DNA of 64,000 nt from Escherichia coli (GCF_030013205.1 NZ_CP122648.1), one strand, 5' to 3'; positions 1,554-44,249 are shown, counted from the stretch's first letter. A program made the numbers and translations. Notes: generated by a model not told the origin, from the letters alone.

Positions 1554-3218
1554 TTAGTCAATTTCGTTGGGATCAAGTGCACCGGGAATATTTTTGATCT
1601 CTTCCCAGCGTTCCCCTTGCAGGCGGTAACCTGTAGCCGGTCCGGCGTAATCATTGATGTCATTGACCGCTGAGAGCACTTGTCCGTCATCGACGATGAT
1701 GGCTGAGGTATGGAGATAATCGCCGGTCAGTTTTGCTTTTTGCATGTTGAGCATGTCCTGGGCGACATCGGTAAAACCGCCTTGCGCCAGGGCTTTCACC
1801 ACTTCCAGGCTGTTCCGGTTTTTATTGATAATCTCCTGGGCGAACTTGATGTCTTCCACAATATTGCGCTCAGGCATATCTTTTGATCCGTGGGCATAGG
1901 TTGCCGCTTCGACTTCTTCATCGGTAATAGGCGGTAGTCCCATACCGGCAAAGACAGCCTGTAAAGCGCGAGCGGCTTTATTGCGGATAGCGATAACATC
2001 TTCTTCGCGTACTGGTCGCAGGCCGCCATCAACCTTCAGGTCACGCTGAATGACGTTGTAATCATCGAAGTCTTCAGCATCTTCGTTTGAACCAGCAAAC
2101 ATGTTGTCGTAGTTCGGCACAGCGGAAAAACCGGAAGAGATAAAGTCGGTACCTGGCAGAAACTGCATCAGGAAACGTGCGGTACGGCGCATATCCGAGT
2201 GGGTAAAGGTCTGGTCATTACTGGAGGCGCATTCCAGATCCAGCGATGAGCAAATTAAGTTTTCCGCTAATACTGCGCGGATGCCTGATGGCACAGCCGA
2301 TGGAACACCGATGCAGCTTACCGAACCATTCTGTAGACCCTGAACTCCTGCGGCTTTGGTGATGTAAATGCAACGAGCCTCGAGATAAAGCATTGATTTG
2401 CCTTCTGCGTAACCCATCTGTACTTCAGAGCCGGAGCCGGAAGTAAAGCGCATTTTTAAGCCGCGAGACGCATAGGATGACGCGAGAAATCCTTTTGACC
2501 ACGGGGTGTTATCGCCATCGGTGAAAACAGGTTCTGTACCATAGACAGAAATTGTTTCGGCGTAACAGGTGTGGCCTAACATACCGAGTTTCAGTTCGGT
2601 GGCTTCTTCCAGTGAACACTGGGTCAAGACGCCCGGACGTCCCACCTGTGAGCCGACCAGCAGGGCGATGGCGTTGAACGGGGCATAGCGAGCAACGGCA
2701 ACGGTGGTTTCCTGTTCATCAAACCCGCGCCATGCGCCTTCAGCTGCGTCGGCGGCAATTTGTACCGGGTTATCTTTGACGTTGGTGACGTGAGCCTGTT
2801 GTGATGGTGTTCGACGGGCGCGCATTTTCTGCATCGCCATCATCATCTCTACCACGTTCATCTGCGAAACAACTTCGACGATTTTTGCAGGCGTCATTGC
2901 TGTGGTAAGGGGAACGATATCGCTACGTTTGACATTTGGATCGCACAACATATTGGCAAGTTTTACCGAATCCATCGCGATGACTTCTTCGGCGCGCGCG
3001 AGATTGATGCCGTAGCGGGCGATAAAGTGGTCGATCAGGTCAAACTGGCTGGCGGGTTTTCCATCCAGTTCGGTAACGACGCCGTTAACAATTTTGATTG
3101 ACGGTTTAGGATCGTTCGGGCTTTCCATCGCAATGAAGCCTTCTTCAATCCACTCTTTAACGAAACCGTCCTGGTTGACCGGGCGTTTTGCCAGTGCTTC
3201 AAATCTTTTCGATCTCAT
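1554..3218 (-). CDS. pduC: B12-dependent propanediol/glycerol dehydratase large (alpha) subunit
   Basis: 554 aa ORF starting MRSKRFEALAKRPVNQDGFVKEWIEEG..., the expected length and N-terminus of PduC. Confidence 0.92.
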   Translation of the reverse strand: MRSKRFEALAKRPVNQDGFVKEWIEEGFIAMESPNDPKPSIKIVNGVVTELDGKPASQFDLIDHFIARYGINLARAEEVIAMDSVKLANMLCDPNVKRSDIVPLTTAMTPAKIVEVVSQMNVVEMMMAMQKMRARRTPSQQAHVTNVKDNPVQIAADAAEGAWRGFDEQETTVAVARYAPFNAIALLVGSQVGRPGVLTQCSLEEATELKLGMLGHTCYAETISVYGTEPVFTDGDNTPWSKGFLASSYASRGLKMRFTSGSGSEVQMGYAEGKSMLYLEARCIYITKAAGVQGLQNGSVSCIGVPSAVPSGIRAVLAENLICSSLDLECASSNDQTFTHSDMRRTARFLMQFLPGTDFISSGFSAVPNYDNMFAGSNEDAEDFDDYNVIQRDLKVDGGLRPVREEDVIAIRNKAARALQAVFAGMGLPPITDEEVEAATYAHGSKDMPERNIVEDIKFAQEIINKNRNSLEVVKALAQGGFTDVAQDMLNMQKAKLTGDYLHTSAIIVDDGQVLSAVNDINDYAGPATGYRLQGERWEEIKNIPGALDPNEID

Positions 3219-3236
3219 AAATCTGCCTCAGAGAAT

Positions 3237-4049
3237 TCAGATGTAGGAAGGGCGATCGTTTTTCGGTGTATCGCCGAGAGTCGAAAGCACGGTTTTACCG
3301 ATTTCGCGTGCGGAGATGACCGCCTGGCGGACTGCGCCGGAGTCACCCGAGATAATCAGAATGACTTCATTGCTGTAGCTGGTGCCTTGAGCGGGGGAGC
3401 TGTATGCCACAACATCCACATTGGCGGACTTCAGCGCGGTGTCGGCCATCAGAACACCCACAGCAGCCGGAGCGCCGACAATAACGCCGCAAGCCCGTCC
3501 CAATGGTGCACCAAACGCTTTTTCCAGTGCATAGCTGGCGCGGGCGGTATATTGCAGCTCAAGATGTCCGGCTTCGTTGGCATAGACATCGCCAAAGGTC
3601 CGATCGAGTTCTTTCAGGGCGACTTCAATACCGCGTTTCACGTCGGAAACATCGTTGCCACCTAAGAGGATCAATGAGCCATGTCCGGCACCGCCTTTAG
3701 TATCCCGAGGAAGTTCAATGCTAATAATTTCAGTGTTGGTGGCTTTTACCGCTTCATCAGCGGCCATAATGTGTGGCCCTGCGCCAATACGCGCACCCAG
3801 AATGCCAATGGAACGATAGCGTTTTTCAAGTTTCATCGCGTCCAACAGGGCGCTATCAACGTTCGCAATGACCAGACCTACAGTGTCGCCAATAGCGGTG
3901 CCAACAAATTCTGTTAACGTGCAGCTTTTTTCTGCCATAGCCGTCTCTCGTATTTGATGAGTGGTTTTCGGGAGAACCTCATGCTCTGGCGTCGCTACGC
4001 GAGCGATGACCTGCGCCATGATCTGTTTGACCAGTTCATTGCTGCTCAT
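3237..4049 (-). CDS. pduB: microcompartment shell protein PduB
   Basis: 270 aa ORF with tandem BMC-like regions, between pduA and pduC. Confidence 0.85.
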
Positions 4050-5652: not shown

Positions 5653-5854
5653 CGAAATAATCTGGCAGTTATAAACGTTTATTTTTTTACTGTTTGTGAT
5701 CTGCTTTCCGAACTTATTAAAAAGTCTCCCGCTTCACGGAGGCTTTTGTTATTGTCCTTTGTGCTTCTCGTGAGTAAATCATCAGGGATGATGTGAAGAT
5801 TAAATGTAAAACAATTGTTTTGCTATAACAATAAATTAACTGGGAGGTTTTATC

Positions 5855-6769: not shown

Positions 6770-6869
6770 AGTAAATGCTAAAAAAAGGGAAGGTTTAAAT
6801 AAACGCTGGAATGAATAATTAACGTTATTTACGTGTTATGGGAAAAGTGAAATCAGCTCATAACATACG

Positions 6870-7035
6870 CTGACAGGTGTGGCACATTTGTGCCTGGGAA
6901 GAGGGTGAAAATCCCTCGCAGCCCCCGCTGCTGTAATGCTGACAAACCCGAAAATACCACTGATCGCGAGATTGGGAAGGTCGGGGGAGGATGACGCTAA
7001 GCCAGAAGACCAGCCTGTCAGTCAATACCAACAAC
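6870..7035 (+). promoter_or_regulatory. cobalamin (B12) riboswitch, cob operon leader
   Basis: Conserved riboswitch blocks read directly: gtgcctgggaag...gggtgaaaatccc...gcagcccccgctgctgtaa...B12 box gccagaagaccagcctg. Confidence 0.6.
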
Positions 7036-11249: not shown

Positions 11250-11325
11250 TGGCTCCTCTGACTGGACTCGAACCAGTGACATACGGATTAACAGTCCGCC
11301 GTTCTACCGACTGAACTACAGAGGA
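11250..11325 (-). tRNA. asnV: tRNA-Asn (GUU)
   Basis: Reverse complement of tcctctgtagttcagtcggtagaacggcggactGTTaatccg...ggagcca; identical to the three other Asn tRNA copies in the window. Confidence 0.9.
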
Positions 11326-11579
11326 ATCGTGTGAATGGGGCGCATATTAATGGCAGTACATGGTGATGTCAAAGGGTGAAATGCATTTTTTTGTTTGTTT
11401 GCTGTCAATTTCAACAAAGTGGTGAGCTTTCAATCTTATTGGTAATGAACCATCGTGGTGCATACCCTCCTTTTATAGGGCAGGGGAACGCGACAGCTGA
11501 TAAAAAGAGCCAATGACGAACCTATCATAATCTCTTATTTGACAGTTGCTTAGCTTGTACATCAACGCCAAAATAAAAC

Positions 11580-11595
11580 TGGCAAGCATCTTGCA
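11580..11595 (+). promoter_or_regulatory. sigma-54 (-24/-12) promoter of nac
   Basis: tGGcaagcatcttGCa with correct GG-to-GC spacing ~55 bp upstream of the nac start; nac is known to be sigma-54/NtrC dependent. Confidence 0.55.
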
Positions 11596-11650
11596 ATCTG
11601 GTTGTAAGTAATGGCGGCACTTGGGCCGATTCTTAAAAACCGGAGGCAAC

Positions 11651-12568
11651 ATGAACTTCAGACGCCTGAAATACTTCGTAAAAATTGTAGATATTGGTAG
11701 CCTGACCCAGGCTGCTGAAGTATTGCATATCGCACAACCGGCGCTCAGCCAGCAGGTTGCCACACTGGAAGGTGAGTTAAATCAACAACTTTTGATTCGC
11801 ACAAAACGGGGCGTTACGCCAACTGACGCCGGAAAAATTCTCTATACCCATGCGCGGGCCATTTTACGTCAGTGTGAGCAGGCCCAACTGGCGGTGCATA
11901 ACGTTGGTCAGGCATTATCGGGGCAAGTCTCGATTGGCTTTGCGCCAGGAACCGCTGCGTCATCCATCACCATGCCCTTATTACAGGCGGTTCGCGCTGA
12001 ATTTCCGGAGGTCGTTATCTATCTTCATGAAAATAGCGGTGCAGTGCTTAACGAAAAACTGATAAATCACCAACTCGATATGGCGGTGATTTATGAGCAT
12101 TCCCCTGTGGCTGGTGTATCCAGTCAGGCTTTACTGAAAGAAGATCTTTTTCTGGTAGGAACTCAAGATTGCCCGGGGCAAAGCGTTGATGTTAATGCTA
12201 TTGCGCAAATGAACCTCTTTCTCCCAAGTGATTACAGTGCAGTTAGACTTCGTGTTGATGAGGCTTTTTCCCTACGGCGACTTACGGCAAAAGTCATTGG
12301 TGAAATTGAGTCTATTGCCACGCTTACCGCAGCGATTGCTAGCGGCATGGGCGTTGCAGTATTACCCGAATCGGCCGCGTGTTCGTTATGTGGCGCAGTA
12401 AACGGGTGGATGTCACGCATTACCACACCTTCCATGAGTCTCTCTTTGTCATTAAATTTACCCGCCAGAGCGAACTTATCACCACAGGCGCAAGCAGTGA
12501 AAGAGTTGTTAATGTCAGTGATGAGTTCTCCAGTGATGGAAAAAAGGCAGTGGCAATTGGTCAGCTAA
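11651..12568 (+). CDS. nac: nitrogen assimilation control protein (LysR family)
   Basis: ORF 11621-12568; start at internal ATG 11651 (MNFRRLKYFVKIVDIGSLTQAAEVLH, LysR HTH). Confidence 0.9.
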   Translation: MNFRRLKYFVKIVDIGSLTQAAEVLHIAQPALSQQVATLEGELNQQLLIRTKRGVTPTDAGKILYTHARAILRQCEQAQLAVHNVGQALSGQVSIGFAPGTAASSITMPLLQAVRAEFPEVVIYLHENSGAVLNEKLINHQLDMAVIYEHSPVAGVSSQALLKEDLFLVGTQDCPGQSVDVNAIAQMNLFLPSDYSAVRLRVDEAFSLRRLTAKVIGEIESIATLTAAIASGMGVAVLPESAACSLCGAVNGWMSRITTPSMSLSLSLNLPARANLSPQAQAVKELLMSVMSSPVMEKRQWQLVS

Positions 12569-12669
12569 GCGTTATATCGGGATGGAATAAGATGCGGGTT
12601 TTTATTATTTGTTATGCCGGGCATTAGACTTTAACAATAACGGGATATCTGAACTGCCCGGAGTTTACC

Positions 12670-13620
12670 GTGAATTTCCAACAACTAAAGATAATCCGCG
12701 AGGCTGCACGTCAGGATTACAACCTGACAGAGGTTGCGAATATGCTTTTTACCTCACAGTCAGGCGTCAGCCGTCACATTCGGGAACTGGAGGATGAACT
12801 TGGCATCGAAATATTTGTTCGACGAGGTAAGCGACTGCTGGGCATGACTGAACCGGGCAAAGCATTACTGGTCATTGCAGAACGTATTCTGAATGAAGCC
12901 AGTAATGTTCGTCGGCTTGCAGACCTGTTTACCAACGATACGTCTGGCGTTCTCACTATTGCAACGACGCATACTCAGGCACGTTATAGCTTGCCAGAGG
13001 TCATTAAATCTTTTCGCGAACTATTCCCGGAGGTTCGGCTCGAGCTAATCCAGGGGACGCCACAGGAAATTGCGACGTTGTTGCAAAATGGCGAAGCTGA
13101 TATTGGTATTGCCAGCGAGCGTTTGAGTAATGACCCGCAGCTCGTCGCCTTCCCGTGGTTTCGTTGGCACCATAGTTTGCTTGTTCCACTCGATCATCCC
13201 TTGACGCAAATTACACCATTGACGCTGGAATCAATAGCGAAGTGGCCGTTAATTACTTACCGACAGGGGATTACGGGGCGCTCACGTATTGATGACGCAT
13301 TTGTCCGCAAAGGTTTGCTGGCAGATATTGTATTAAGTGCGCAGGATTCTGATGTCATTAAAACCTATGTTGCTCTTGGGCTGGGGATCGGATTAGTTGC
13401 CGAACAATCCAGTGGTGAACAAGAGGAAAAGAATTTAATCCGTCTGGATACGAGGTATCTTTTCGATGCTAATACTGTCTGGTTGGGACTGAAGAGAGGG
13501 CAACTTCAACGTAACTATGTTTGGCGCTTTCTGGAACTTTGTAATGCAGGACTGTCAGTTGAGGATATCAAGCGCCAGGTGATGGAGAACAGTGAAGAGG
13601 AAATTGATTATCAGATATAG
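12670..13620 (+). CDS. cbl: LysR-family regulator Cbl (sulfonate utilization)
   Basis: 316 aa ORF MNFQQLKIIREAARQDYNLTEVANMLFTSQSGVSRHIRELE...; CysB paralog next to nac. Confidence 0.9.
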   Translation: MNFQQLKIIREAARQDYNLTEVANMLFTSQSGVSRHIRELEDELGIEIFVRRGKRLLGMTEPGKALLVIAERILNEASNVRRLADLFTNDTSGVLTIATTHTQARYSLPEVIKSFRELFPEVRLELIQGTPQEIATLLQNGEADIGIASERLSNDPQLVAFPWFRWHHSLLVPLDHPLTQITPLTLESIAKWPLITYRQGITGRSRIDDAFVRKGLLADIVLSAQDSDVIKTYVALGLGIGLVAEQSSGEQEEKNLIRLDTRYLFDANTVWLGLKRGQLQRNYVWRFLELCNAGLSVEDIKRQVMENSEEEIDYQI

Positions 13621-13621
13621 C

Positions 13622-13650
13622 AAAAAGCCCGCTATAAAAGCGGGCTTTTC
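13622..13650. terminator. bidirectional rho-independent terminator between cbl and asnU
   Basis: Hairpin agcccgc-tataaaa-gcgggct with flanking A/T runs. Confidence 0.6.
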
Positions 13651-13657
13651 AGAAATT

Positions 13658-13733
13658 TGGCTCCTCTGACTGGACTCGAACCAGTGACATACGGATTAAC
13701 AGTCCGCCGTTCTACCGACTGAACTACAGAGGA
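13658..13733 (-). tRNA. asnU: tRNA-Asn (GUU)
   Basis: Reverse complement matches the tRNA-Asn sequence exactly. Confidence 0.9.
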
Positions 13734-13893
13734 ATCGCTGTTGAGGCACATCTTAACGGCGAAAAATCTTTTGTCAAACCCGATTTTTAAATTTCCCAAC
13801 TGTTTGCCGTTTCTATCAACAGTTTGTTGCATTTGCAGACAATTTGTTGGCGAAAATCTTTGCAGCTTTGCTGATTCTCCCTCATTATTTGAA

Positions 13894-15381
13894 ATGTGGT
13901 TTCACTTTCTGCAATTAAGGTCGGCTTTGAATATCTCCTCTGCTTTACGCCAGGTTGTTCACGGCACTCGCTGGCACGCTAAACGCAAGAGCTACAAAGT
14001 GTTGTTCTGGCGCGAGATAACCCCGCTTGCTGTTCCTATCTTCATGGAGAACGCCTGTGTCCTGTTGATGGGTGTCCTGAGCACTTTTCTGGTCAGCTGG
14101 CTGGGAAAAGATGCGATGGCCGGCGTGGGATTGGCGGACAGCTTCAATATGGTCATTATGGCATTTTTTGCGGCTATCGATCTTGGTACCACTGTCGTTG
14201 TGGCATTTAGTCTCGGTAAGCGGGATCGACGACGAGCGAGGGTGGCGACGCGGCAGTCATTGGTGATCATGACGTTGTTTGCCGTGCTGTTGGCAACGCT
14301 TATTCATCATTTTGGCGAACAAATTATTGATTTCGTTGCGGGTGATGCCACGACAGAAGTTAAAGCACTGGCGTTGACTTATCTGGAGCTGACGGTACTC
14401 AGTTATCCAGCAGCTGCCATCACTTTGATTGGTAGCGGGGCACTTCGTGGTGCAGGGAATACGAAAATACCGCTACTGATTAACGGTAGCCTGAATATTC
14501 TTAATATTATTATTAGCGGCATATTGATTTACGGCCTTTTCTCCTGGCCGGGACTGGGATTTGTCGGGGCTGGGTTGGGGTTAACCATTTCTCGTTATAT
14601 TGGCGCAGTGGCAATTTTGTGGGTGCTGGCGATTGGTTTTAATCCTGCGCTAAGGATTTCGTTAAAGAGCTATTTTAAACCGCTGAATTTTAGCATTATC
14701 TGGGAAGTCATGGGGATTGGTATTCCAGCGAGTGTCGAATCAGTATTATTTACCAGTGGTCGGTTATTAACCCAAATGTTCGTTGCCGGGATGGGGACCA
14801 GTGTTATTGCCGGGAATTTTATCGCGTTTTCAATTGCGGCTCTTATCAACTTACCCGGAAGTGCGCTCGGCTCTGCTTCTACGATCATTACAGGCCGAAG
14901 GTTGGGGGTAGGGCAGATAGCGCAAGCAGAGATTCAGTTGCGGCATGTGTTCTGGCTGTCCACTCTTGGATTAACGGCCATCGCCTGGCTAACGGCTCCC
15001 TTTGCCGGGGTTATGGCATCGTTTTACACCCAGGATCCACAGGTTAAACATGTCGTTGTGATTCTGATTTGGCTAAATGCTTTATTTATGCCTATTTGGT
15101 CCGCCTCATGGGTGCTACCCGCTGGATTTAAGGGTGCTCGCGATGCCCGTTACGCCATGTGGGTTTCTATGTTGAGCATGTGGGGTTGCCGGGTTGTAGT
15201 CGGTTATGTGCTGGGAATCATGCTTGGCTGGGGTGTGGTTGGTGTCTGGATGGGAATGTTTGCCGACTGGGCTGTGCGGGCCGTGCTGTTTTACTGGCGA
15301 ATGGTTACTGGACGTTGGCTGTGGAAATATCCTCGACCCGAGCCGCAAAAGTGTGAAAAAAAGCCAGTTGTGTCGGAATAA
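13894..15381 (+). CDS. yeeO: MATE-family efflux transporter
   Basis: ORF 13741-15381, 12-TM-like hydrophobic profile; start uncertain, 13894 (MWFHFLQ...) chosen because 13741 abuts asnU. Confidence 0.8.
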   Translation: MWFHFLQLRSALNISSALRQVVHGTRWHAKRKSYKVLFWREITPLAVPIFMENACVLLMGVLSTFLVSWLGKDAMAGVGLADSFNMVIMAFFAAIDLGTTVVVAFSLGKRDRRRARVATRQSLVIMTLFAVLLATLIHHFGEQIIDFVAGDATTEVKALALTYLELTVLSYPAAAITLIGSGALRGAGNTKIPLLINGSLNILNIIISGILIYGLFSWPGLGFVGAGLGLTISRYIGAVAILWVLAIGFNPALRISLKSYFKPLNFSIIWEVMGIGIPASVESVLFTSGRLLTQMFVAGMGTSVIAGNFIAFSIAALINLPGSALGSASTIITGRRLGVGQIAQAEIQLRHVFWLSTLGLTAIAWLTAPFAGVMASFYTQDPQVKHVVVILIWLNALFMPIWSASWVLPAGFKGARDARYAMWVSMLSMWGCRVVVGYVLGIMLGWGVVGVWMGMFADWAVRAVLFYWRMVTGRWLWKYPRPEPQKCEKKPVVSE

Positions 15382-15481
15382 ACGACAAAATGCAGATTAT
15401 TTCAGCAAACGATTTCAAATTTAAAAAACAGGCTTTGACATTGTGGATGGGCATCGCTAATATTCGCCTCGTTCTCACGAT

Positions 15482-15557
15482 TCCTCTGTAGTTCAGTCGG
15501 TAGAACGGCGGACTGTTAATCCGTATGTCACTGGTTCGAGTCCAGTCAGAGGAGCCA
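15482..15557 (+). tRNA. asnW: tRNA-Asn (GUU); integration site of the island that follows
   Basis: tcctctgtagttcagtcggtagaacggcggactgttaatccgtatgtcactggttcgagtccagtcagaggagcca. Confidence 0.9.
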
Positions 15558-15718
15558 AATTCAAGTTTTCATGCTTATCTGTACGTCTCTATTTGTTTAC
15601 GATTCAGTAAGTTAGCGTGAAAATCCTTCCCGGTGCGTATCTGGTTTTCTCTCTGTATCGGGATAATTTGGTGGTCAGATCTGGGGTCAGTTTGGTTCGA
15701 TTCTGGAGTGACCCCCAA

Positions 15719-16980
15719 ATGTCTTTAAACGATTCTAAAATCCGCAAGTTAAAACCCTCTTCCCGTCCGGTAAAACTCTCCGACTCTCACGGTCTGTATC
15801 TGCTCGTCAATCCGGGCGGTTCACGCATCTGGTATCTCAAATATCGTTTCAACGGAAAAGAATCCAGAGTCAGTCTTGGCGCATACCCGCTTGTCTCACT
15901 GGCAGAAGCCAGGCAACAGCGCGACGGTATCCGTAAGTTACTGGCGCAGAATATCAACCCGGCGCAGCAGCGCATGGCGGAGAAAGCGGCCTGCTCCCCT
16001 GAAAAGTGCTTTAAGGCAGTGGCGCTGGCCTGGCACAAAACCAACAAAAAATGGTCGGCTGATTATGCCGCCCGTATTCTCGCCAGTATGGAAAACCATA
16101 TCTTCCCGGCGATTGGTCATCTGCCAGTTGCCACTCTTAAAACGCAGGATTTACTGCTTTGTTGCGGGTTATCGAGGATAAAGGCTTTCTGGAAGTCGCG
16201 TCCCGAACCCGGCAGCAACTCAGCAACATCATGCGCTATGCCGTTCAGCAGGGGCTTACCGAAAGCAATCCGGCGCAGCATCTGGATGGCGTTGTCGCCT
16301 CACCCGTAAAGAATCACTACCCCGCGTTACTGCTGGAGCGGTTGCCCGAACTGCTTGGCCGCATCGGTGACTATCAGCAGGGCCGGGAGTTAACACGGCT
16401 GGCGGTGGTGCTGACGTTGCACCTGTTTATCCGTTCCAGCGAACTGCGTTTCGCCCGCTGGAGCGAGATCGATTTCAGGCACAAAATCTGGACCATCCCC
16501 GCCACCCGCGAGGCAATCGACAAAGTACGGTTTTCGGGGCGTGGCGCAAAAATACGTACCCCGCATATCGTGCCGCTCTCCCGCCAGGCGATTGCCATTC
16601 TGAAACAGATACAGGAGCTTTCCGGCCATCTGGATCTGGTGTTTCCCGGTGATCATAACCCGTACAAGCCAATGAGTGAAAACACCACCAACCGGGCGCT
16701 ACGCCTGATGGGGTATGATACGAAAACTGAAATCTGCGGGCATGGACTCAGGGCGATGGCCTGTAGCGCCCTGGTGGAGTCGGAGCTGTGGTCACGCGAT
16801 ACGGTGGAGCGGCAAATGAGCCACCAGGAGCGTAACAGCGTGCGGGCAGCCTATGTGCATAAAGCGGAGCATCTGGAGGCCAGAAAGGCCATGATGCAGT
16901 GGTGGTCGGATTATCTGGATGTGTGCCGCGAGGGGTATGTTGCGCCGTACATTTATGCCCGGCAGCATAAGGCAGCCTGA
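15719..16980 (+). pseudogene. P4-type tyrosine integrase, frameshifted
   Basis: Two overlapping ORFs in different frames (15617-16309, 16159-16980) that together span one integrase (MSLNDSKIRKLKP... / ...RHHGLQ-like catalytic C-terminus); frame breaks near 16155-16165. Confidence 0.8.
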
Positions 16981-17119
16981 ATCAGAAATAACGGAAATCA
17001 TTAAAAATGTAAAAGCAGATCCTGATTGACCGGGATCTGCTTATTGTATTGAGAAGTATTACCATTTTTCTGTTATTATCAATCGGAAAGTATCTAAAAA
17101 TATTTGGCCCCAAATAATT

Positions 17120-17560
17120 TTGGTGAAAACCAATCAATAAACCATTTATCAATAGGTAAGTACCGGAAATTATTCCAGTAGAATATTTTCAGGCGATTGC
17201 CTATTAATAAATACATTATTGATAGATAAGTGCCTTCTGTGATTTGTCCGCAAATCACAGAAGATGAAAACCTATCAATACGGGATATTTTCACGGAAAT
17301 ACCAATTAATACTCCAGAATATCTCCTGACCATATACTCTGAAACCTGTAAGAACTGCATCAGATATTGAGAGACCATATAGATATAAGTCTGAAATTAT
17401 TTTGTTTCCAATGATTTCAGGCGAAAACCTATCAATGCATCTGTTTTCAATAGGCAGCCACCTTCCGTGATTAACATGTTAATCACGGAAGGTGAAAAGC
17501 TATCAATAATCGATATTTTCACGGAATTACCACTTAATACATCCCAAAAAATGCGCCATA
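17120..17560. repeat. two tandem ~220 bp units, each with a long palindrome, in AT-rich non-coding DNA
   Basis: Palindromes cttctgtgatttgtccgcaaatcacagaag (~17234-17263) and ccttccgtgattaacatgttaatcacggaagg (~17457-17488), each followed by gaaaa(c/g)ctatcaata...gatattttcacggaa. Confidence 0.5.
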
Positions 17561-18317
17561 AAATACCGGGCAATCTTTCCTGATACACATTATCACTGCA
17601 CCAGCTATACAGAGACAAAATAATCTGCACCAGCCCCTGTAAATCGGTTATTTGTGCCAGTGTCCCGCCGCTCTACCTGTTCAGGGTTGTGCCAGTTTCT
17701 GGCCCTTTGGTTTTCGGCCCTTTCCGGTCAGGCGCTGTTACCCTTATTGCCCCTTAACCTTTATGACCCTTTCCCTTTCTGACGCAACCAGTTTATTTTG
17801 AAATGCTCCATGACAGTCTGCACCAGACTGTATTTTCACCACAGGATAACGATCACAAAGTGCAAAAAAATAACATGAAGCACCAAAGATTGTTAATCTA
17901 TATGTAGCAGGTAATGATGTCAAAAACTGTCGCAGCATTTTTTATAAAATTATGAGACATTCTGTGGGCATATAATATATGTCACAAGATGCAGGAAAAC
18001 AAAGAGAGAGTTTTCAGATATAATCCTGCGTTAGAATTAATGTGATGCCCCGGTGAATTTACATTTTAAAATTTCCCTGTCCCGTAATATCGGTAAAAAC
18101 GATTGAAACACCAGCTATTAATCGGGAACGTCTCGAGTGATTACAGGGTAATCACTATAATATCCCGGCAAACTATATTGGTTAAGCAGGAGAATCTGAT
18201 CAGTTGATATTTATTCGTCATGCTGTAACGATATTTTCACAATATAAACCCGTTCGCCCCCTGCGCCAGATCCGGTACAGAGGGTACGATAAATCGCTGT
18301 CGTTACGCAGTAACGTA

Positions 18318-18935
18318 CTATTTTGCGACATTCATGAATTCAGTCATTCCTCCCTCCAGCGGTAGCCGTACACCTGTTTCACCCAGCGACCGCGACCGTC
18401 GCCATGACCCAGATCCGTCGCCGTCAGCGCCAGTGACTCCTTTTCGCTGAATCCCTGCGCCAGTATCCAGGACTGTCGTATAACGGGGACGCCCGCCTTT
18501 GGTGCCAAATACCACTTTTAGCCGGGTTTCACCGCGGGAAATGGCTTTCAGCCACGTTTTCAGCGACTGTGAACTCTGTACCGCCTCCTGCGAACGCAGC
18601 CCCATCAGCCGCGCAATCTCCAGCGCTGCTGCCAGCCCTGCGTCCTGAGTACGGGCTTTCTCCATCACCTGCCTGCGTCCAGCCTGTCTCAGCACGGCCC
18701 GCAACGCTGCCATTTCGTTTTGCAACGTTCGTAAACCAATATCCAGCTCCAGCCGTTCCTCAATGTAGCATTCGATATGGCGAACCTTGATCTGCTCCAC
18801 CCGCTGGATCTGGATATTCAGCGCCCGTAAATGTTCACTGAACCGTTTTGTAATATGGATACGGTCATTCACCGTTTTGAAGCTGCCGCCCGCTTTCTTC
18901 GCCAGCGCCTTCATTTCACTGCTTAATTTACTCAT
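18318..18935 (-). pseudogene. integrase-domain (Integrase_1-like) protein, apparently truncated
   Basis: N-terminal 160 aa (MSKLSSEMKALAKKAGGSFKTV...VVFGTKGGRPR) resemble island-associated integrase-domain proteins, then the sequence degenerates to low complexity and stops early. Confidence 0.45.
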
Positions 18936-19851
18936 GAATCCCTCTGCAACAAAAACAAACAGTCTCCGGCGTGTGCTTTTTGGCTGCGCCAGAACGATAC
19001 CTTTACGCCGGAGTGGTAGTTTGTTGAGGTTTAGGGAGTTTCAGGCTGTACGCAGTACAGACTGCCTGCGAAGCAGGAGTGTCTCCGGGGCTTCTTGCCC
19101 CCCTCGGTATCGATCTTTTTCTCCTTTACTCTTAGCTGACAGCGGCCCCAAAGGGCATGTCAGACGGCGGAAATATGGCGCAGGCCAGAACTGGCGCGGC
19201 TTGTGGCGGTAAGTTGTGCGGCGTCACTTTGCTTTTTCGCTGGCGCGACCAAAGTGACGCCTCGTCTGGTGCAGGGGGTAAACGTTACGTTTCTGGTGCA
19301 GGGTGACGGTCACGCGGCAGCAAAGCCTGACGGCAATGCAGGCCGCAGCCCGTCAATGTAAGGCGCTGGTTGTCAGCAGAAGATAAAACCCGGCAAAGCC
19401 AGAGTGTCAGCCCGTAAAGCCGGGTATCTGGTGCAGTGATGGTGTATATGTACGTCAGTCTCAGATGCAGGTATTTTTGCATCCCCGGCGTTTTCAGAGA
19501 TCAACGCCGGTAAAGGATGCCATGCTGGCGAAGCCAGGCGCTTCTTTCAGACGTGAAGCGACAAAGGGACTGCCCGGAGGCAGTTTGTTGCAGGCGGGAG
19601 ACTGCGCCATTATTTCTGGTGCAGGAAGGAAAAACTGTTTCCGGGTTTAAAAGATTGTTTGCTTACCTGGTGACGGAAAAACTGCCGCGCTTCGCTTGTC
19701 TTCTCCCGGCGCGCTGCCAGCAAAAGCAGGCAGCGCGCCGGGAGAGTCTGGTTTTACTGTAACAATGCGCCTGACGGTTCAGCCATCAGGATCGGCGTTT
19801 ATGCATGAGTCTTCCGGTACGGTTGCCCCGATCATCGATGTATCTGGACGG

Positions 19852-44196: not shown

Positions 44197-44249
44197 TGGC
44201 GGCAGAGCAGTCACGGAGTAAAACTGATACCGCCAAACGTCACCAGAAA
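44197..44249 (-). ncRNA. dicF: DicF small RNA
   Basis: Reverse complement reads tttctggtgacgtttggcggtatcagttttactccgtgactgctctgccgcc, just upstream of dicB. Confidence 0.7.

Follow-up and report, generated by a model that had tools for sequence, protein, structure and literature searches.

Palindromic dyad units beside an MpsA-family gene in a P4-like island of Escherichia coli: candidate accessory DNA structures of a mobilisation module

In an island inserted at a tRNA-Asn gene of Escherichia coli, 1.34 kb of DNA without annotation separates two convergent genes and holds an array of palindromic repeats. What is this array, and to which of its neighbours does it belong? The window, by which we mean the whole 64-kb stretch that was analysed, covers the E. 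coli asn-tRNA cluster (cobUST, ldtA, nac, cbl, and yeeO). The landmarks that frame the unannotated stretch are as follows, in window coordinates.

15482 to 15557, + strand: tRNA-Asn, the island insertion site on the attL side (ARAGORN; the same tRNA-int layout is found in RefSeq records).
15719 to 16980, + strand: P4-type tyrosine integrase gene (int), a frameshifted pseudogene, also marked "frameshifted" in the identical RefSeq record.
17013 to 17042, no strand assigned: terminator-like hairpin AAGCAGATCC...GGATCTGCTT, immediately 3' of int.
18318 to 18935, − strand: "integrase-domain" gene (PF12834+PF12835), MpsA/MOB_M-like; a truncated, frameshifted pseudogene of 205 aa, compared with 294 aa when intact.
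18991 to 19118, − strand: EFASI Rfam motif (RF02957), 56 nt upstream of the relaxase-like gene.

The island backbone is P4-like, with a P4-type int, a P4-like arm site, a C4 RNA, and Ash. The intact orthologue of int encodes Arm-DNA-bind_3, Phage_int_M, and Phage_integrase domains, and comparison with the P4 arm repeats (TTGGGGGCAY) identified a P4-like arm-type sequence, TTTGGGGGTCA, that overlaps the start of int (window ~15700-15722). The hairpin behind int is kept in most relatives examined and has an A-run on one side and a T-run on the other, so it likely works as a terminator in both directions. Past the PF12834+PF12835 pseudogene follow EFASI and C4 RNA motifs, an HTH gene, and RHS cargo. 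The backbone encodes several DNA-binding proteins: a Ner/SfsB-like HTH_35 protein, HigA, and the P4-type Int.

Two further observations concern the window at large. The nac-cbl-yeeO segment (window 11250-15557), which is bounded by inverted tRNA-Asn genes, has the opposite orientation in two of the other loci (L003 and L004) among E. coli strains, and the island occupies different asn tRNA copies in different strains; together this implies that the tRNA-Asn repeats have recombined with each other. DicF (44197-44248, −), STnc230 (5711-5794, −), and a cobalamin riboswitch (6858-7032, +) are ordinary annotated features unrelated to the repeat.

A preliminary description of the locus had reported two tandem units of about 220 bp, each with a long palindrome, downstream of the island integrase. 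The tandem repeat is real and does lie there: positions 17182-17312 and 17410-17540 form a direct repeat, offset by 228 nt and 73% identical, which TRF missed because it consists of only two diverged copies. Palindrome 1 (17234-17263, CTTCTGTGATTTG tccg CAAATCACAGAAG) is the imperfect 30-bp palindrome that had been described, built as 13+4+13 bp. Palindrome 2 (17459-17494, CACCTTCCGTGATTAACA followed directly by TGTTAATCACGGAAGGTG) is indeed perfect but measures 36 bp instead of the 32 bp originally given. The conserved block GAAAACCTATCAAT...GATATTTTCACGGAA that had been noted behind both palindromes recurs at 17266-17312 and 17494-17540. With arms of at least 13 nt and a loop of at most 6 nt, palindromes 1 and 2 are the sole perfect inverted repeats in the window, and 20 first-order shuffles produced none. 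The sequence CCTATCAATA, allowing one mismatch at most, has 11 matches in the 64 kb, six of them inside 17130-17508, and none of 100 shuffles reached 11.

The size of the repeating unit had to be revised. A pair of copies with a shared flanking block exists, as described, but the basic unit is a 61-bp dyad of fixed length, made up of the box TTGATAGGAAA, a palindromic interior of 35-36 nt, and the box GAAAACCTATCAAT. Comparison with copies of greater divergence, from E. coli (L007) and Salmonella (L009), revealed this unit, and a permissive scan located four in the window.

17079 to 17138, no strand assigned: dyad unit U0, TCAATCGGAAA, 35 nt, GAAAACCAATCAAT; degenerate here, with a weak hairpin (z −0.8).
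17149 to 17208, no strand assigned: dyad unit U1, TCAATAGGTAA, then GAAATTATTC cagta GAATATTTTC, then GATTGCCTATTAAT; ssDNA fold −11.7 kcal/mol, z −5.6.
17219 to 17279, no strand assigned: dyad unit U2, which holds palindrome 1; ssDNA fold z −6.7 (+ strand) and −7.5 (− strand).
17447 to 17507, no strand assigned: dyad unit U3, which holds palindrome 2; ssDNA fold z −7.8 (+ strand) and −7.2 (− strand).
17182 to 17540, no strand assigned: segmental duplication from U2 to U3, the direct repeat given above, including a post-unit block GATATTTTCACGGAAnTACCAnTTAATAC at 17283-17312 and 17511-17540.

U0, U1, and U2 follow an exact 70-nt period with 9 nt between units, and no dyad unit lies elsewhere in the window. 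The 228-nt duplication is confined to Escherichia and is missing in Escherichia whittamii (L010) and in a variant with a single long unit (L007). Hairpins of variable length were ruled out by the constant 35-36-nt interior. Three features go beyond the preliminary description: the 61-bp unit with its two upstream copies, a conserved core to the right of the array, and the convergent PF12835 gene. The last of these, and not the integrase, is the most informative neighbour of the array.

We first consider what the array is not. As had been stated before, no credible gene covers the repeat: its open reading frames, of 94, 77, 46, and 38 aa, had no Pfam match even at an E value of ≤1. Among the best 25 RefSeq records listed, none had an annotation under the spacer match, and the same was true of most in a range of more diverged ones; the exception, a 99-aa hypothetical protein annotated in O145 strains, had no Pfam or PHROG match. 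Spacer homologues differ by indels of 14 nt and 8 nt. Given no family match and indels that are not multiples of three, we rejected a protein-coding gene and also a degraded internal duplication of a known gene, the outcome that the preliminary description had set beforehand against its own reading. Rfam gave no match above noise for the units, and no known RNA family was recognised. A terminator scan returned three sites (17013-17042, 17691-17703, and 18301-18315), all of them outside the units; with no T-runs either, the units are not intrinsic terminators. No convincing promoters were found in or beside them.

Two well-known classes of palindromic DNA were compared and set aside. Like REP/BIME elements, which they match in size, the units are imperfect palindromes that lie in clusters between convergent genes, but REP sequences occur in hundreds of copies per genome and are associated with RAYT transposases, whereas the units occur in 1-4 places per E. 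coli genome and every fetched locus lies in the same module. This rules out REP/BIME, a MITE, or another dispersed repeat. Integron attC sites share with the units outer inverted boxes, a variable self-complementary interior, selection on structure, and a nearby tyrosine recombinase. However, attC sites span 57-141 bp, carry essential strand-specific extrahelical bases, have cassettes between them, and are served by an IntI-type integrase, while the units are of fixed length, abut one another 9 nt apart without cassettes, and neighbour a PF12834/PF12835 gene and not IntI.

For a comparative analysis, 79 loci were fetched from GTDB genomes with the neighbouring small recombinase protein as the query, and the association of units with this gene is therefore partly by construction. 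Units were present in about 25 of the 79 loci and in at least 10 genera (Escherichia, Salmonella, Citrobacter, Klebsiella, Phytobacter, Entomohabitans, Tatumella, Tenebrionibacter, Brenneria, and Affinibrenneria), with one to five units per locus and a conserved order relative to the other landmarks. In every unit-bearing locus they lie 27-1240 nt from the 3' end of the PF12835 gene. Most relatives of the gene have no units, which are thus not essential to the basic function of the protein. The boxes and the 35-36-nt interior were found in 71 of 81 detected units. Interiors fall into several classes, all of them self-complementary: GTACAAAATTATTCGA/TCGAATAATTTTGTAC, TACAAAAAATTTTG cccc CAAAATTTTTTGTA, ACCCAAAATTATTTG gggg CAAATAATTTTGGGT, and the E. 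coli type CTTCTGTGATTTG/CACCTTCCGTGATTAACA. A BLAST search recovered the spacer from 431 of 5426 complete E. coli genomes but from none of their plasmids; phage records had no match, and the match in one Salmonella record came with the same genes alongside. Nine matches were obtained in a pattern scan of IMG/VR, of which eight were chance matches with non-palindromic interiors and one was the same module.

The variable positions of the interior change symmetrically. In a covariation alignment of 32 non-redundant units (A3), 14 of the 16 pairs of the inner helix have changed on both sides, with 91% of positions paired. Compensated cells numbered 113, versus 47±8 in shuffles (none of 500 reached this count), and sliding the register left only 36-44% pairing. 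Compensation is also seen within classes, from T·A to C·G between U2 and U3 and from CA/TG to CG/CG between U3 and the unit of L007. The outer boxes form a conserved dyad that is 74% paired and shows little compensation; box residues and an ATT-N8-AAT motif are invariant across the 32 units. Folded as ssDNA, U1 to U3 reach z scores of −5.6 to −7.8, and for U2 and U3 this holds on either strand. From genus to genus, orthologous units share 87-96% identity where third-codon positions of int share 69%, and this comparison indicates that purifying selection acts on the units.

These results bear on the possibility that the units are functionless, self-perpetuating palindromes that arise by local duplication, are kept symmetric by template-switch (quasipalindrome) correction, and hitch-hike in a constrained spacer. 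The range of copy number, the recent duplication of U2/U3, the many relatives without units, and the decay of the element in the window would all suit such an origin. Against it stand the identity of the units across genera relative to synonymous sites, the invariance of the boxes and of several other positions in the non-redundant set, and the conservation of unit positions relative to the core across genera. We consider this explanation unlikely.

A second possibility is that the units act as RNA, either as hairpins in a long 3' untranslated region of the relaxase-like mRNA or in an SGI1-like 3'-derived sRNA, with a role in stability, processing, or protein sponging. Since the sole strong terminator is the one beside int, past the units, transcription of the mRNA probably continues across them, and SGI1 does need an sRNA from its mob region (PMC9299015). 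On the gene-sense strand, the core pairs of the helix include seven G·U and one A·C. A functional RNA, however, normally tolerates G·U on its own strand, and the units have no overall wobble bias, with 21 G·T and 21 A·C mismatches in the 32 units and near-exclusive Watson-Crick pairing (389 Watson-Crick, one G·T, and seven A·C over the 13 core pairs), which places the constraint at the DNA level. The units belong to no Rfam family and are equally symmetric on both strands, and conserved flanking boxes together with a fixed length would be unusual for stabiliser hairpins. An RNA role is thus distinctly unlikely in our view, and the structured-RNA locus that had been suggested earlier is not supported.

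Duplex operators of an island regulator were considered in the same light. The Ner/SfsB-like HTH_35 protein, HigA, or the arm-binding domain of the P4-type Int could bind the units and control convergent transcription or excision. Fixed spacing, conserved boxes, several copies, an A/T-rich context, and a backbone with multiple DNA-binding proteins are all in keeping with this, and ATT-N8-AAT with a constant interior length would equally suit duplex recognition. In addition, class c and d centres in relatives (L037/L081) read TTGGGGGCA, the P4 Int arm-site consensus, in either orientation. Neither U1 and U3 of E. coli nor classes a and b have these G-run centres, though, so the resemblance was treated as a possible coincidence and Int arm-type sites were rejected. 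No copy of the box motif lies in the arm region between tRNA and int, and the lack of convincing promoters also speaks against operators. The non-conserved positions change on both arms together, which argues for intrastrand pairing rather than reading of half-sites by a dimer. We therefore regard operators as a decidedly doubtful explanation. The earlier impression of an operator or iteron array holds insofar as this is a cis-acting-looking dyad array in an iteron-rich region, but not as a simple operator, given that the arms vary symmetrically.

Taken at the level of sequence evolution, the pattern indicates DNA hairpins or cruciforms under selection, as opposed to a gene, an RNA, or a plain operator. 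The fixed length and the invariant positions would further imply a defined geometry that is recognised by a protein.

To the right of the array lies a second conserved element, the core.

17596 to 17826, + strand: core, with 9-mers CTGCACCAG at 17596, 17625, and 17818 and TTGTGCCAG at 17652 and 17687, pentamers at 17703-17778, and CCGGTCAGGCGCTGTTACCCTTA at 17724-17746.

The core is the best-conserved part of the spacer, more so than the units. Its CTGCRCCAG 9-mers share one orientation, its CCCTT/CCTTT pentamers lie on the + strand only, and CCGGTCAGGCGCTGTTACCCTTA (CCGGTyTGGCGCTGTTACCCTT, 17724-17746) is invariant. Of the 79 loci, 29 have the core; in each of them it sits on the downstream side of the small recombinase gene, and its orientation never varies. 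Where the spacer is short, at 220-310 bp (Brenneria, Lonsdalea, Samsonia, and others), it contains the core without units, and where units occur, they flank the core. In two loci (L078 and L081), core and units are kept beside the PF12835 gene even though the adjacent integrase is unrelated (~34% identity), which shows that both travel with the small recombinase side. Covariation was uninformative for a consensus structure of the core, the sequence being too invariant, and a G-quadruplex was rejected because it was found in only 3 of 27 loci. The one-strand CCCTT/CCTTT array around CCGGTCAGGCGCTGTTACCCTTA (window 17700-17790) is kept from Escherichia to Brenneria; the pentamer equals the target of poxvirus topoisomerase IB and lies here beside a gene of the tyrosine-recombinase fold.

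The 9-mer also extends beyond the core. In 60 full-length loci we counted 102 CTGCRCCAG copies in the 500 bp upstream of EFASI, followed by none for ~2 kb, and 168 copies in the reverse orientation from EFASI through the gene to ~900 bp downstream. CTGCRCCAG/CTGGYGCAG is thus strictly polar and flips at EFASI, with some copies within coding sequence. The same flip is seen in the window, where CTGCRCCAG lies on the + strand up to 18984 and CTGGYGCAG is found at 19266, 19293, and 19428. The surroundings of EFASI and the downstream core therefore share one polar 9-mer.

Iteron-like 9-mers and A/T-rich dyads raise the possibility of a replication origin or cis-replication region like crr of P4, where two iteron-bearing direct repeats come just after the final gene of the left operon. 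The P4-like backbone and the placement of a directly repeated cis element right after the last left-operon gene provide a positional analogy. The P4 repeats, however, are 120 bp long and carry TGTTCACC iterons bound by the alpha primase, whereas the spacer contains no TGTTCACC and the backbone encodes neither alpha nor any recognisable initiator. P4 ori/crr iterons were accordingly rejected, and an origin of this type is highly improbable.

The gene with which core and units travel is labelled "phage integrase N-terminal domain." Its intact 294-aa protein consists of PF12834 (N-terminal SAM-like) and PF12835 (Integrase_1) and has weak XerC/D similarity; PF12835 matches over the full model at 4e-59. 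PF12835 is the signature used by the Burrus group for MpsA, the atypical relaxase of the tyrosine recombinase family from SGI1 (PMC10484663), so the link to MpsA is made at the Pfam level. Relaxases of the MOB_M class, according to a 2026 preprint, are the commonest in E. coli and Salmonella chromosomes, a fact recognised only recently; they abound beside integrases in islands of these species, have been mis-annotated as integrases, and lie near an integrase in 96% of cases (bioRxiv 10.64898/2026.01.13.699239). PF12834 is an extra domain that is absent from the known MOB_M members MpsA, MobK, and TcpM, and no relatives of the protein with solved structures were found by sequence. Homologues were found on two plasmids, a Pantoea MPF_G plasmid typed as non-mobilisable by MOB-suite, on which the gene precedes leading-region-type genes, and an 8-kb Caballeronia plasmid; nothing comparable to the repeat array lies beside the distant plasmid homologues.

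Given its core-binding domain, the protein could instead be an ordinary site-specific recombinase. The units might then be core-type recombination sites of this adjacent small enzyme, used for resolution, inversion, or deletion, with two monomers on the inverted inner arms around a 6-8-bp centre and the outer boxes as accessory sites. The geometry fits: arms of 11-15 bp in inverted orientation enclose a variable, G/C-rich centre that measures 4-8 bp, and ATT-N8-AAT is invariant. A protein with a core-binding-type N-terminal domain, a catalytic domain, and weak similarity to XerC/D fits as well. Unit number is moreover polymorphic at homologous break points: L006 has a deletion of ~70 nt, which corresponds to one period, and L010 carries a U2/U3 hybrid. 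Slippage between boxes or homologous recombination would explain these polymorphisms equally well, however, and recognition of half-sites would not be expected to produce symmetric covariation at the variable positions. Units within one element differ in their arms and centres and so could not recombine with each other, and most relatives of the gene do without them. We judge recombination sites to be unlikely.

On the other side of the gene, EFASI lies directly upstream and on the same strand in 22 of 22 loci examined (the window and 21 relatives, L012-L087, at ~3760-3945), and it is present also in distant relatives that have no downstream core. On this comparative footing, EFASI appears as the universal cis partner of the PF12834+PF12835 gene and the dyad units as a lineage-specific addition. 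In the distant relatives, a further Rfam motif, STAXI (L058, L062, L073, L083, and L087) or radC (L047, L049, L054, and L056), is often found just upstream of EFASI at ~3100-3630, and in a Lonsdalea locus (L049, 5205-5270) a retron msr RNA match follows immediately downstream of the relaxase-like gene.

The closest parallel to this arrangement is the mob module of SGI1 (mpsA-mpsB, sgm-sRNA, and oriT_SGI1; relatives at dusA/yicC), which likewise places a PF12835 gene of the tyrosine-recombinase fold on an island with an integrase adjacent. The SGI1 oriT is a 125-bp inverted-repeat array beside mpsA (PMC6414798), and in its distant relatives three stem-loops are kept through A-T/G-C swaps (bioRxiv 10.1101/2021.06.18.448947), as the inverted-repeat DNA beside the gene is here. 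The essential sRNA of SGI1 is encoded in the mob region between mpsA and oriT (PMC9299015), so that each system has a structured RNA-like element beside the gene, sgm-sRNA in one and EFASI in the other. By this analogy, the position of EFASI would be equivalent to that of the oriT/sgm-sRNA of SGI1, and EFASI, instead of being an independent sRNA, may represent an oriT at the DNA level or a counterpart of the sgm-sRNA. The two systems also differ: oriT_SGI1 is single, GC-rich, 125 bp long, and upstream of mpsA, whereas the units are A/T-rich, present in one to five copies, and downstream, and MpsA lacks a core-binding domain and needs MpsB, whereas the protein described here has a fused N-terminal SAM-like domain.

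Plasmid pIGRK offers a likeness on the side of the gene where the units lie. It has been argued that MobK, as a 3'-linked tyrosine enzyme, blocks rolling-circle priming and makes extra single-strand origins necessary, and a single-strand initiation site (ssi) has been placed just downstream of mobK (PMC8152469). In both systems, the gene for a tyrosine-recombinase-like protein thus has cis elements to either side (in pIGRK, oriT upstream and a hairpin-type ssi downstream). Unlike the island, however, pIGRK is a small plasmid with one predicted ssi and not an array of boxed dyads, and MobK has no core-binding domain.

The region as a whole is a conserved non-coding cis region that runs from EFASI through the MpsA-family gene to the CTGCRCCAG/CCCTT core in a P4-like island at tRNA-Asn. 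Within it, the reading that we favour, while stopping short of calling it probable, is that the four ~61-bp dyads are accessory cis-acting DNA structures of the mobilisation module of the island. The units would form hairpins in single-stranded DNA or cruciforms in supercoiled DNA, and these, with a fixed distance between the two boxes, would be recognised as structured DNA by the PF12835 protein. The sequence comparisons establish the anatomy of the units, their compensatory evolution, the purifying selection on them, their restriction to this module, and their linkage to the PF12835 gene side; binding of this protein to the units, relaxase activity, and a role in transfer, most likely in the processing of the excised island DNA during conjugative mobilisation, are what we infer. 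The units could serve as accessory relaxosome sites or as Holliday-junction-like entry sites or, alternatively, as the single-strand initiation sites needed by a 3'-linked tyrosine-type relaxase. We found no description of boxed dyad units in Rfam or in the searchable literature, and they look like a newly described variety of the inverted-repeat cis sites of mobilisation modules.

We hold this reading tentatively because the MOB_M link is at the Pfam level, the protein has a core-binding domain, most relatives have no units, and the known MOB_M oriTs are upstream of the gene (the EFASI side here), whereas the units are downstream. In the window, both int and the relaxase-like gene are pseudogenes, and the array in this strain is therefore probably a non-functional relic.

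A more far-reaching version, which is unlikely, takes the boxed dyads as an unrecognised class of cruciforms or hairpins recognised by protein (Holliday-junction mimics or ssi for MOB_M relaxases), EFASI as the true oriT mis-filed as an sRNA, and the polar 9-mers as a loading array. Should the units prove functionless, they would still be a clean example of palindromes held symmetric over inter-genus distances. The module presents a compact, structure-conserved cis landscape of EFASI, polar 9-mers, CCCTT core, and boxed hairpin units, and natural variants with and without each part make it testable how a 3'-linked enzyme supports strand transfer and complementary-strand synthesis. If the far-reaching version is true, it would give a handle on how such a relaxase starts and finishes the conjugative transfer of islands that are very common in E. 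coli and Salmonella.
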